IMG/VR virus record: IMGVR_UViG_2706796476_000001
Coordinates: 64,001-128,000 of that record
From: a virus
Lineage: Duplodnaviria > Caudoviricetes
Length of the DNA stretch: 64,000 nucleotides
Strand: one strand, 5' to 3'
A model generated the notes under the pieces. The model ran no database searches, was not told the DNA's origin, and saw nothing but the letters and a program-made list of their open reading frames with translations. Both the position numbers and the translations under genes were made by a program. Of this stretch, positions 42,442 through 47,241 are shown in pieces (the stretch's first letter is position 1; every line of letters begins with the position of its first letter).

Positions 42442-42819
42442 TTAAGCATCCACGATTGGAAAGTGTATGCCATTTACAACAAATGATCCTACCGAGTAGT
42501 AGCACCCTCCATTACCCGAATCTGCATACATTTCAGCTAAAGCGATCGGATTTTGGTTGTGGTATAGTGTAACTTTAACTTCGTTTACATCCACGTCTTC
42601 ATGCGGAATACTGACTTTTTCTCCAATTTCAACATTGGTAATAACTGCATCAAGTTTTACGTTACTGAACGTTCCATGCGCAAGAGCGCAACAGTCGTTT
42701 TCACTCATTTCAAGGGTAATAACTGTACCATCGTCTAACACAAGTTTATTGTGATCCCATTCCACAATCCGTTTATACAGTAAATGTTTGTTTAAGTCTT
42801 TTAAATCACCATAGTCCAT
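42442..42819 (-). CDS. hypothetical phage protein
   Basis: ENDCCA...ADSGNGGCYYSV; strong RBS. Confidence 0.7.
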   Translation of the reverse strand: MDYGDLKDLNKHLLYKRIVEWDHNKLVLDDGTVITLEMSENDCCALAHGTFSNVKLDAVITNVEIGEKVSIPHEDVDVNEVKVTLYHNQNPIALAEMYADSGNGGCYYSVGSFVVNGIHFPIVDA

Positions 42820-42841
42820 TTCGTATTCCTCCTTTTTATGA

Positions 42842-42913
42842 TGGGTCCTAAGAGACTCGAACTCCTATCCTATCAGTTATGAGCTGATTGCTTTACCTTT
42901 AAGCTAAAGACCC
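42842..42913 (-). tRNA. tRNA with CAT anticodon (Ile2-like or Met)
   Basis: Full cloverleaf; anticodon arm ATCAG-CTCATAA-CTGAT; T-loop TTCGAGT; no encoded CCA. Confidence 0.85.
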
Positions 42914-43372
42914 GTAAGTTAACGTAGGGTCAAACCGGCAACCACCCTACCTGTATTCAGCACCGCCACTCGACACCCGAGGGTACCTCTCGGCAAGTAT
43001 TGGCATAGAGCCTTCTACGGTTTTAATTCGGGTTTTAAAAGTACTCTCCGTGGTCCGCATTGGCAAGAGGCGTGAGAGCATCTATGACGTAGAAGAGGAA
43101 GAAAAATTCATTATATCTTGTAGTTGCTACATTCCATAGCCTAACGTGCGGTGAGCCGGATTATTTGTACGTCGTAAGTCGTTAATCGTATACCCGTTTT
43201 ACATTCCCACACTTTTTGGATTGTCAGTAATGTCCCCTATTTTAGGGTTAAGCAGTTGAGATATGCTCTCAACCAAAGCAGATTTTCCTCTTCTATCGTC
43301 TACTGCTGGTTTGCACCAGCTATCAAGGTAGAACTTGTCTACCCTCATAGCTAAGGCAAAATGCCTAGCTGC
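42914..43372 (-). ncRNA. putative large structured ncRNA downstream of the DIP1984/DUF6847-like gene
   Basis: No ORF. At least 8 hairpins, a GCAA tetraloop, an 11+4 bp long-range helix (43285-43300 with 43086-43100) and four tandem 7-mers (43163-43190). Confidence 0.65.
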
Positions 43373-43894
43373 TTACATGTACTTATCAGCGTTTCCAAAA
43401 GAGATGAAGTGAGTATGGTTTGCTCTCTCAATAGCATTGGACAGTGAGTTAGCAAACTTCTCTATTTCTTCTCCTCGAGCCTTAAGCGACTTCGGGTCAA
43501 ACTGAGCGTACTTATACTCTACCTCTGAAGAGTTGTAGCTAGGTAAACGCTCAGTTTTTTTAGATTGACCGAAACGTTTCAGAAGCGAAGCCTCTGCTCT
43601 CAGTTGCTTAGCTAGTTCCAACGCTTCAACAATTGTGTAAACTGTGCCTGTTGAAGTTTCGACAGTCGCCTCTGAGTTAGTTGCTGCAATCCTTAGAGAG
43701 ATTTTTCGGTAGTCATCTCGAACGTCATTTAGCTCTTTAGTGACTTCTGCAAATGTTCTCTCAGGTTTTTCATACTCTTCATCTTTACGAGCCGTTACGT
43801 ATGCAATGTCGTCACGTTCACGTACCAGTTCGTGAAGTTTACGAGAGATAGCGTTCTTTAACGGTAAAGCTTCAAACAGATAAACTTTTGTCAT
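43373..43894 (-). CDS. DIP1984/DUF6847-like helical protein
   Basis: Pattern L.EAL...I..TN...TI.EAL...SYNSSEV.Y...FD...L...L...I..AN.T recognised by eye; has its own sigmaA promoter. Confidence 0.7.
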   Translation of the reverse strand: MTKVYLFEALPLKNAISRKLHELVRERDDIAYVTARKDEEYEKPERTFAEVTKELNDVRDDYRKISLRIAATNSEATVETSTGTVYTIVEALELAKQLRAEASLLKRFGQSKKTERLPSYNSSEVEYKYAQFDPKSLKARGEEIEKFANSLSNAIERANHTHFISFGNADKYM

Positions 43895-43964
43895 AGTTAT
43901 CGTCTCCTTTAATTTGTCTGTAACTAGACTATATCATATAACATTTTACACTGTCAACGGTTTT

Positions 43965-44258
43965 TTACAATCCACATATATCTTCACCTACAAAAGATTC
44001 ACCGTTCTTGAAACTTTTGTATAGTCGTTCAAGTTTATTAAGGTTTTGCTCAAGGTCCCTTATTTTATTGTGTAGTTCGTTATCTAGTCTAAACCTTATT
44101 AATCTTTTGCCGTACTCTGATAGGGTTGGGTTTTTCAAGTCACTTAGTAACTCAGCGTGCTCCTTCTTAGACTTATCCAAGTTATATCTATTTGAATTTA
44201 GTCTAGTTTTTATTTCTGTTTCAGATACTTCGGTATAAAGGTAATCATAGTGAGCCAT
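43965..44258 (-). CDS. hypothetical protein (paralogue of 44346-44639)
   Basis: 97 aa; LSEYGKRLI..LDNEL..KI...GE....DICGL. Confidence 0.7.
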   Translation of the reverse strand: MAHYDYLYTEVSETEIKTRLNSNRYNLDKSKKEHAELLSDLKNPTLSEYGKRLIRFRLDNELHNKIRDLEQNLNKLERLYKSFKNGESFVGEDICGL

Positions 44259-44345: not shown

Positions 44346-44639
44346 CTATAACCTGCAAATATCTCTCCGTGTAACTTCTTCACCGCTGTTAACTCTTCTA
44401 ATAAGTTTTTCGTACTTTCTAACTTTCTCTTCATACATCTTTATCCTCTGTCTCAGCTCTCCGTCTAGGTATTCTATTAGTCTTTGTGCACCAATCTCAG
44501 AGATATCTCTCTTTGTCACGTCTCTTATAATCTCCGAGTCTTCCACCTTACACATTTCTAAATGGTACTGAGCTATTTCTAAAAGTTCCTGAATGGCTTC
44601 GAGAGACACAACTCTATCTAATAAATCGTAGTTTTCCAT
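44346..44639 (-). CDS. hypothetical protein (paralogue of 43965-44258)
   Basis: 97 aa; ISEIGAQRLI..LDGEL..RI...GE....DICRL. Confidence 0.7.
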   Translation of the reverse strand: MENYDLLDRVVSLEAIQELLEIAQYHLEMCKVEDSEIIRDVTKRDISEIGAQRLIEYLDGELRQRIKMYEEKVRKYEKLIRRVNSGEEVTRRDICRL

Positions 44640-47174: not shown

Positions 47175-47241
47175 ACGATCTGAGAGGAATCGAACCTCTT
47201 TACCTATCGCAGTAGTGCTTTTACCAATAAGCTACAGACCG
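47175..47241 (-). pseudogene. tRNA-like element with truncated anticodon arm
   Basis: Intact acceptor, D and T arms; anticodon arm is only CTA-CTGCGA-TAG. Confidence 0.55.

Follow-up and report, generated by a model that had tools for sequence, protein, structure and literature searches.

The window that we analysed, a 64,000-nucleotide (nt) stretch of the IMG/VR virus record IMGVR_UViG_2706796476_000001 (Duplodnaviria; Caudoviricetes), carries on its minus strand a gene for a 173-amino-acid (aa) protein of the DIP1984/DUF6847 fold, followed by a 459-nt gap and a tRNA-Met gene. Comparison of these sequences with those of other phages and of bacteria indicates that the gene and the RNA encoded directly downstream of it are a conserved unit across phages and bacteria. 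By the same kind of comparison the gap is a composite of this partner RNA (module A), a hairpin of the AbiF-antitoxin type (module B) and two further hairpins, and not a single RNA. We put the probability at about 0.6 that one promoter produces a composite transcript of the gene and its partner RNA, a decoy hairpin and a tRNA, with release of the RNAs linked to the tRNA. The source record represents a 151-kilobase (kb) virus that is 98% complete, and its nearest relatives are the Agatevirus (Herelleviridae, Bastillevirinae) phages Bobb, phiAGATE and SDFMU_Pbc, phages of Bacillus pumilus/subtilis, with 87-89% DNA identity across the region.

The gene and the folded RNA behind it

Relatives of the protein at 47-50% identity were found by protein search in Bacillus licheniformis, B. 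glycinifermentans and Bacillus sp. WMMC1349, and at four loci of the genus Bacillus the DNA behind each homologue is homologous to RNA positions 1-290 of the phage. Phage and bacterial RNAs are 74% identical over positions 4-120 and can be aligned up to the closing helix, a long-range helix that encloses a domain of about 185 nt in the phage. In an alignment of eight sequences, 95% of the cells of hairpins H1-H4 are paired, compared with 28-50% for slid partners, and four pairs change on both sides. The arms of the closing helix read UAGAAGAGGAA / UUCCUCUUCUA in the phage and CAGAGAA / UUCUCUG in the bacteria, and RNAalifold retains this helix, with pair 84-295 being UA in four sequences and CG in four, and pair 93-287 being GC in four and AU in three. 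The conserved, covarying RNA downstream of homologues that the original prediction had named as its test was therefore found, with compensatory changes in both the hairpins and the closing helix. A covariance model (R2) of the first 129 RNA positions matched only these four loci in 91 Bacillaceae genomes, each time directly behind the gene, with scores of 123-141 bits on the sense strand versus 35-39 bits on the opposite strand. Since the flanking genes (alanine racemase, RpiR regulator, pseudouridine synthase) are unrelated housekeeping genes, the gene-RNA pair is a self-contained unit of about 1 kb. The bacterial RNAs have an intrinsic terminator about 45 nt past the helix, and none of the partner RNAs at the four Bacillus loci contains the abiF hairpin described below. 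We refer to the phage and B. licheniformis RNAs as type 2; together with two further loci they share a hairpin framed by UGAGGG/CCUUGA, which is nested in an outer stem that covaries in L222/L223.

A profile of the protein has matches in 72 of the 401 sampled Bacilli species genomes (~18%), one copy each, including members of Sporosarcina, Heyndrickxia, Lysinibacillus, Bhargavaea, Viridibacillus and Domibacillus, some of them annotated as 'DIP1984 family protein'; we identified 437 homologues. The region just past the stop codon is hairpin-rich in all 34 further Bacilli loci examined, and 27 of these 34 share one common architecture (type 1), namely, an 11-base-pair (bp) covarying hairpin with the loop UGAGACU that lies 0-2 nt past the stop in most, next a covarying long-range helix of 8-14 bp enclosing roughly 100-220 nt, and then, in most loci, an intrinsic terminator. 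In the 21 distinct stems of this hairpin, pairing reaches at least 95% at nine of the 11 positions, and a single position can show as many as five pair types; the long-range helices vary in sequence by lineage while their complementarity is kept. Two type-1 RNAs, whose proteins are 33% and 38% identical to that of the phage, gave folding z-scores of -5.5 and -5.2. Protein identity between the phage and the chromosomal loci of the pair is 34-50%. We link type 1 and type 2 because they share the same protein and architecture, and not by sequence alignment. Rfam recognises no family in the partner-RNA region of 13 related loci; measured against Rfam 15 and the literature searched, these RNAs are, as far as their sequences tell, an uncatalogued class.

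In the phage, the minus strand carries in order the promoter (43957-43928), the 173-aa open reading frame (ORF), the gap (42914-43372), tRNA-Met and a DUF7448 gene. The features of this locus, with the evidence for each, are as follows.

43928-43957, minus strand: sigma-A-type promoter, TTGACA-18-TATAGT with a TG-extended -10; 11 of 12 consensus matches
43373-43894, minus strand: gene for the 173-aa DIP1984/DUF6847-fold protein (phrog_25222); ORF, Pfam, NCBIfam, Foldseek
43086-43372, minus strand: partner RNA (module A), RNA positions 1-287, shut by the long-range helix; homology to DNA behind the Bacillus homologues, folding z = -5.9 for RNA positions 1-290 (antisense -4.4)
43305-43370, minus strand: 5' hairpin block; single-sequence fold, 95% of cells paired, four two-sided pair changes
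43285-43295, minus strand: 5' arm of the long-range helix, purine-rich, 11 nt; fold and compensatory changes against bacterial versions
43255-43273, minus strand: hairpin H4 inside the closed domain; two pairs changed on both sides
43141-43197, minus strand: heptad array, AC(G) triplets at RNA positions 176, 184, 191, 198, (205) and 226; columns invariant between phage and bacteria
43090-43100, minus strand: 3' arm of the long-range helix, pyrimidine-rich, 11 nt; fold and compensatory changes against bacterial versions
43040-43086, minus strand: orphan AbiF-antitoxin-type hairpin (module B) with a 22-nt core at 43052-43073; pattern, covariation, model R1
42977-42993, minus strand: hairpin within a longer stem, one compensatory change among Agateviruses; fold and Agatevirus alignment
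42924-42950, minus strand: invariant hairpin immediately upstream of the tRNA; fold and Agatevirus alignment
42842-42913, minus strand: tRNA-Met (CAU); tRNA prediction and Rfam

The partner RNA begins 2 nt past the stop codon of the gene. Its 5' block has two competing folds, one with the three hairpins H1 (43349-43370), H2 (43325-43345) and H3 (43305-43320, with a GCAA loop), and one with an extended H2 nested in an outer stem, which excludes the three-hairpin fold; the two may constitute a switch. All hairpins that the original prediction named are present in the minimum-free-energy fold, and of the long-range helix that it proposed the 11-bp core is kept, whereas the outer GACG/CGUC extension is not conserved, being deleted in phiAGATE. 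We also observed that the 5' arm at 43285-43295 and the matching arms in loci L192, L194 and L204-L211 often form a near-perfect Shine-Dalgarno (SD) sequence (GAAGGAG), and that the 3' arm resembles the 16S anti-SD sequence. In the alignments of the homologous loci, no start codon or small ORF is conserved after the purine-rich arm.

The closed domain of the phage RNA contains about eight heptads of the form AC(G/C)NNUN. The AC(G) triplets are the columns that are invariant between the phage and bacterial versions inside this domain, and the substitutions among four Agateviruses fall between them. In an autocorrelation analysis of 36 partner RNAs, lag 7 was the best in 27, with a mean z of 2.5, compared with -1.0 to 0.4 for the other lags from 2 to 12 (-0.7 for lag 5). 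In each of 35 RNAs, three or more AC follow one another at a spacing of exactly 7 nt, and in 25 of the 35 such a run has four or more, versus two of 1750 shuffles; the pooled unit is A-C-(C/G)-N-(A)-U-(U). Because both the lag-7 autocorrelation and the AC runs extend across the partner RNAs, we regard the array as a family-wide feature. The 7-nt periodicity noticed earlier in this one sequence is thus real, though Tandem Repeats Finder made no call on the array and reported no tandem repeat.

The protein belongs to Pfam DUF6847 (PF20935), with 37 bits against a gathering cut-off of 27 (E 4e-9), and scores 41.8 bits against NCBIfam DIP1984_fam (NF038048), below the curated cut-off of 70, so that by this sequence score it is a distant subfamily. 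Proteins P0002 and P0003 are 85-91% identical to it. An AlphaFold model built on 11 sequences is mostly helical, with a mean local confidence score (pLDDT) of 92, and its top and only significant neighbour in the PDB by Foldseek is 3KDQ (E 1e-5, probability 1.00, template-modelling (TM) score 0.57-0.64), a function-unknown DIP1984 protein of Corynebacterium diphtheriae that represents the founding fold. The family call, originally made by motif recognition, is accordingly backed by the Pfam profile and by Foldseek, with DIP1984_fam below its cut-off. Foldseek gave no nuclease-like or other toxin fold, 3KDQ being the sole fold match, and no RAMP or Cas chain among the listed matches, and PADLOC gave no match for the protein and its neighbours. 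In the literature that we searched, DIP1984/DUF6847 is treated nowhere beyond annotation, with no described function or RNA partner.

The gap downstream of the gene is, by sequence criteria, under selection and not coding. Its pairwise identity among four Agateviruses is 86-94%, whereas third codon positions in the gene next to it reach 72-76%. Its indels among these phages have lengths that are not divisible by three, and in phiAGATE its sole sizeable ORF (49 aa) is disrupted by a deletion of 7 nt; we therefore consider the gap non-coding. As coding candidates, the 49-aa and a 44-aa ORF were rejected, as neither has family matches and both are broken by indels in relatives. A search of Rfam 15 over positions 42700-44100 with E up to 10 gave no match besides the tRNA, and at gathering thresholds only tRNAs were found in the window; the Infernal check proposed in the original prediction thus matched no known family other than tRNA. 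The parts of the gap are distributed separately, positions 1-290 occurring with the protein, positions 287-333 in unrelated phages, and the remainder in Agatevirus only. RNAalifold on the four Agateviruses alone had too little variation to work with, and its 3' fold clashes with the abiF hairpin. The structured RNA of about 460 nt postulated earlier is therefore not one RNA: only about the first 290 nt are the partner RNA of the protein, and the next 47 nt are an unrelated module, whose hairpin at 43040-43086 with the AbiF-antitoxin core was absent from the earlier list of stems.

A sigma-A promoter ahead of the gene and the lack of a terminator between gene and RNA had both been predicted; the former is present, and a site scan of the locus detected no terminator-like site between the gene, the gap and tRNA-Met. 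RNase P cleavage at the 5' end of tRNA-Met would define the 3' end of the upstream RNA. Elsewhere in the window, two paralogous 97-aa ORFs lie on the minus strand at 43965-44258 and 44346-44639 (the one that was checked is phrog_13293), each with its own TTGACA-18-TA(T/C)AGT promoter (44335 and 44715) of the same type as that at 43957, so that these ORFs and the DIP1984-like gene look like a row of small, separately promoted cassettes. At 47175-47241 (minus strand), a tRNA call by Rfam (44.9 bits) was not reported by ARAGORN and may be an atypical tRNA-like RNA.

The AbiF-antitoxin-type hairpin

A permissive BLAST search with the gap matched many Nitunavirus phages, only at RNA positions 299-325, and a BLAST comparison of the whole RNA with other phage tRNA regions likewise found only these positions in common. 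The 22-nt core pattern that we derived from the Nitunavirus match (with two free positions) occurs in 37 IMG/VR viral contigs and in at least 120 bacterial contigs, and its flanks form an outer stem of 5-7 bp that is different in nearly every copy yet paired, thus covarying over 27 distinct copies. The pattern lies within Rfam abiF RNA matches in two viral contigs (37.8 and 38.7 bits; gathering threshold 37), and three viral contigs have an identical core 13-60 nt ahead of Abi_2 (PF07751) genes. The hairpin of the window aligns to RF03085 in the same register, with the outer stem, the 3-bp inner stem, the conserved loop and the 3' bulge all present. Our own model R1 scores it at 54.5 bits at 43040-43086 as the single copy of the phage, with no second hairpin of this type in the window or the whole phage. 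The 173-aa protein has no homology to the 116-aa ORF preceding the Nitunavirus abiF hairpin, and therefore the hairpin is not tied to this protein.

The HEPN RNase toxin AbiF is neutralised, also in trans, by a small RNA that is encoded upstream and binds it directly (PMC12373285; reviews PMC12737573 and PMC13064643). Among the matches listed, an Abi_2 gene lies directly downstream of the motif in 71 of 123 bacterial instances, as opposed to three of 37 viral ones. A search that allowed E values of up to 10 detected no Abi_2 gene in this phage or in phiNIT1, P59, Lactobacillus phage P1 and Bobb. The hairpin here is not upstream of Abi_2, and of the type III toxin-antitoxin system only the RNA half is present. 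Many orphan viral copies are found within or beside tRNA arrays on the same strand, for example in phage P59, where tRNA-Asp and tRNA-Pro flank the copy, in phage P1, where tRNA-Gly follows after 11 nt, and in a 213-kb contig, where the copy lies 12 nt after tRNA-Met and adjoins a ROOL RNA. Within the genus Bacillus, the motif was found in three of 49 species representatives, two of which have Abi_2 directly beside it, while the third match is weaker, with no ORF of at least 150 aa nearby; one of the Abi_2 proteins matches, along its full length, the AbiF-RNA complex 8VZ6 solved by cryo-electron microscopy (E 5e-32). Our literature search found no description of phage-borne orphan abiF RNAs. 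The hairpin at 43040-43086 is probably a decoy antitoxin.

Several contigs with this motif have other features of note. In the 213-kb IMG/VR contig mentioned above (L010:8371-9472), from an uncultured jumbo phage, tRNA-Met, the abiF-type hairpin, ROOL (231 bits) and four more tRNAs lie on one strand. Tandem abiF-type hairpins (42 and 63 bits) occur in a 16-tRNA array (L039:4730-4825), recalling the two motifs of RCd22, and in L035:383-628 an abiF-type hairpin located just before a small-terminase-like gene is preceded, at a distance of about 150 nt, by a suppressor-type tRNA (anticodon UUA). A type-P5 twister ribozyme (L013:9183-9237) and a cyclic-di-GMP-I riboswitch (L008:1215-1292) are found in contigs that also carry an abiF-type hairpin. 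The tRNA region of phiNIT1 (L004:1829-3066), like that of Grass and 035JT004, has a gap of about 0.85-1.2 kb without an annotated gene; in phiNIT1 this gap holds an abiF-type hairpin (1990-2035), a skipping-rope RNA (RF02924, 2994-3064, 46.8 bits) and two direct repeats of about 50 nt (about 2340-2390 and 2545-2595), both of which contain a hairpin that covaries, and overall it resembles a series of small RNA modules. In Staphylococcus phage Stau2 (L179:1501-1536) and about 30 related Silviavirus records, a weaker candidate match (23.6 bits), confined to the inner part of the core, lies directly behind a nuclease gene with no tRNA nearby.

Interpretation and alternatives

Because conservation across phages and bacteria extends to the gene-RNA unit, its long-range helix and its heptads, comparative evidence supports a protein-RNA particle with subunits spaced on the repeats as the most economical reading of the sequences. 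Copies of the DIP1984-fold protein would bind the heptads, one per unit, to form a ribonucleoprotein, with the fixed heptad bases contacted by the protein and the variable bases exposed. The protein would prefer the RNA tail of its own messenger, with loading probably occurring in cis as the ribosome leaves. The abiF-type hairpin would act in trans, keeping host AbiF silenced once infection stops host transcription. Two further hairpins and tRNA-Met follow, and since there is no terminator before tRNA-Met, its processing by RNase P would probably free the upstream RNAs. The binding of the heptads, the decoy activity and the processing are steps that we infer. Of the interpretation first offered, in which an oligomeric protein binds periodic repeats, the conserved gene-RNA unit with its helix and heptads holds, but the single 460-nt RNA does not.

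Several observations weigh against this reading. The covariation between phage and bacterial type-2 RNAs comes from few independent lineages, and the phage type-2 RNA shares the type-1 architecture but no alignable sequence. The hairpin of the window scores 15.6 bits with Rfam abiF (RF03085) against a gathering threshold of 37 (E 1.2 in a 91-nt search), and its loop has GC where most copies have AA. The AbiF survey covered 49 species representatives of the genus Bacillus, of which only three carry the motif, and conservation of the hairpin could reflect another partner.

Among the alternatives, the RNA behind the gene might be a cis-acting 3' untranslated element, acting in messenger stability, transcription end or translation control, instead of a bound partner. 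We consider this unlikely, albeit worth serious attention. It would account for the position of the RNA, always on the transcript of the gene itself, for the intrinsic terminator that ends the bacterial versions, for the switch-like character of 5' hairpins with two mutually exclusive folds, and for the resemblance of the purine-rich arm to a ribosome-binding site; however, for stabilisation a closed 100-190-nt domain whose heptads are kept at 34% protein identity would be unnecessary, and the purine-rich arm has no conserved small ORF behind it. A comparably low probability applies to the view that the abiF-type hairpin remains from an AbiF system since lost, or that it serves tRNA operons in general for processing or stability. 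The score below the Rfam threshold would fit this, as would the roughly 40% of bacterial copies, among the matches listed, that have no adjacent Abi_2 in the fetched DNA. Against it, the core is invariant and the stem covaries in Agatevirus, Nitunavirus, P59, Lactobacillus phage P1 and many uncultured phages, no toxin gene or pseudogene was found in the phage genomes searched, and most bacterial copies among the matches listed lie 13-60 nt upstream of Abi_2.

That the gene-RNA pair itself is a toxin-antitoxin or abortive-infection module, serving the phage as a weapon or for addiction, seems to us improbable. Such a role would be in keeping with a solitary module of about 1 kb among unrelated housekeeping genes, which is sporadic among Bacillus species, present in two copies in one genome and common to phages and chromosomes. 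On the other hand, the protein shows no toxin fold, only the 3KDQ match, and PADLOC gives no match; the RNA lies downstream of the gene and not upstream; and a single chromosomal copy in about 18% of the sampled Bacilli is more like a housekeeping accessory. It is very improbable that all 459 nt make up a single large ornate RNA like ROOL or GOLLD that functions as one body, even though the stretch adjoins a phage tRNA, as these RNAs often do, and ROOL lies beside an abiF-type hairpin in one uncultured phage, given that Rfam has no match at E up to 10 and that positions 1-290, 287-333 and the remainder are each distributed separately.

With these results, a function-unknown family of roughly a fifth of the sampled Bacilli and of phages gains a dedicated folded RNA with a periodic 7-nt code, and the partner RNA starting at the stop codon offers a concrete, testable handle on this family. 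In phage tRNA operons, the orphan AbiF-antitoxin hairpins suggest that RNA decoys are a widespread way around AbiF, an abortive-infection system from which Cas13 is proposed to descend, and they would explain part of the 'dark' non-coding DNA in the tRNA islands of large Firmicutes phages. Both the partner RNA and the decoy hairpin bear on phage host range and on the use of small RNAs in phage-host conflict.

Comparison with known systems

The protein shares sequence family and fold with the DIP1984/DUF6847 family (3KDQ), for which, unlike here, no RNA partner is described in the literature searched. Like ROOL and GOLLD, the RNA is a structured non-coding RNA adjoining tRNAs in phages, but it matches neither covariance model, and it is modular and tied to a protein gene. 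The likeness of the gene-RNA pair to a type III toxin-antitoxin unit, suggested in the original prediction, does not hold: ToxIN-type systems have tandem repeats of 34-36 nt upstream of the toxin, whereas here there are none and the RNA lies downstream of the gene. The comparison fits only the hairpin of module B, as a decoy.

This hairpin has the same 22-nt core, 3-bp inner stem and covarying outer stem as the antitoxin RNAs of the AbiF/Abi_2 type III system (RF03085; AbiFr of 8VZ6; RCd22 of C. difficile), whose antitoxin acts in trans. The phage copy differs in having no toxin gene, in being embedded in a tRNA-linked transcript, in scoring under the Rfam gathering threshold and in two loop bases. 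In the proposed logic, neutralising an abortive-infection RNase by a phage-borne host antitoxin RNA without its toxin, it resembles pseudo-ToxI of phage PhiTE, which Blower et al. reportedly described in 2012 as a phage-made mimic of the ToxI RNA antitoxin with decoy activity. The toxin there is ToxN and not a HEPN AbiF, and the RNA is a tandem 36-nt repeat and not a single hairpin; decoy activity here would follow by analogy, and the orphan AbiF-antitoxin hairpin would in this way extend the antitoxin-mimic idea.

For the mechanism of the gene-RNA pair, the closest working analogy is VIPR, in which RAMP-fold Vipr protomers line up on GGY/NN pentads of the vrRNA and the variable bases serve as a gapped guide (bioRxiv 10.64898/2026.04.26.720920, 10.64898/2026.04.26.720927). 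Both systems place a small gene beside a non-coding RNA of short periodic units with fixed and variable positions, and VIPR too is found mainly in phages and also in chromosomes. The protein here, however, has the helical DIP1984 fold and not a RAMP/RRM fold, the units are 7-nt AC(G/C)NNUN and not 5-nt GGY/NN, and there is no accessory vap gene; since the protein fold and the repeat unit differ, membership in VIPR is excluded. It is a speculative and rather improbable extension of the analogy that the DIP1984 protein polymerises on the heptads, with AC(G/C) held by the subunits and the four variable bases serving as a non-contiguous guide for a nucleic-acid target. Were this so, the VIPR-type 'gapped code' would have been invented a second time, by an unrelated system; phages would use the guide particle against competitors or host functions, about one in five Bacilli would keep it, and a single phage transcript would unite this RNA-guided particle with a tRNA and an RNA decoy against AbiF.

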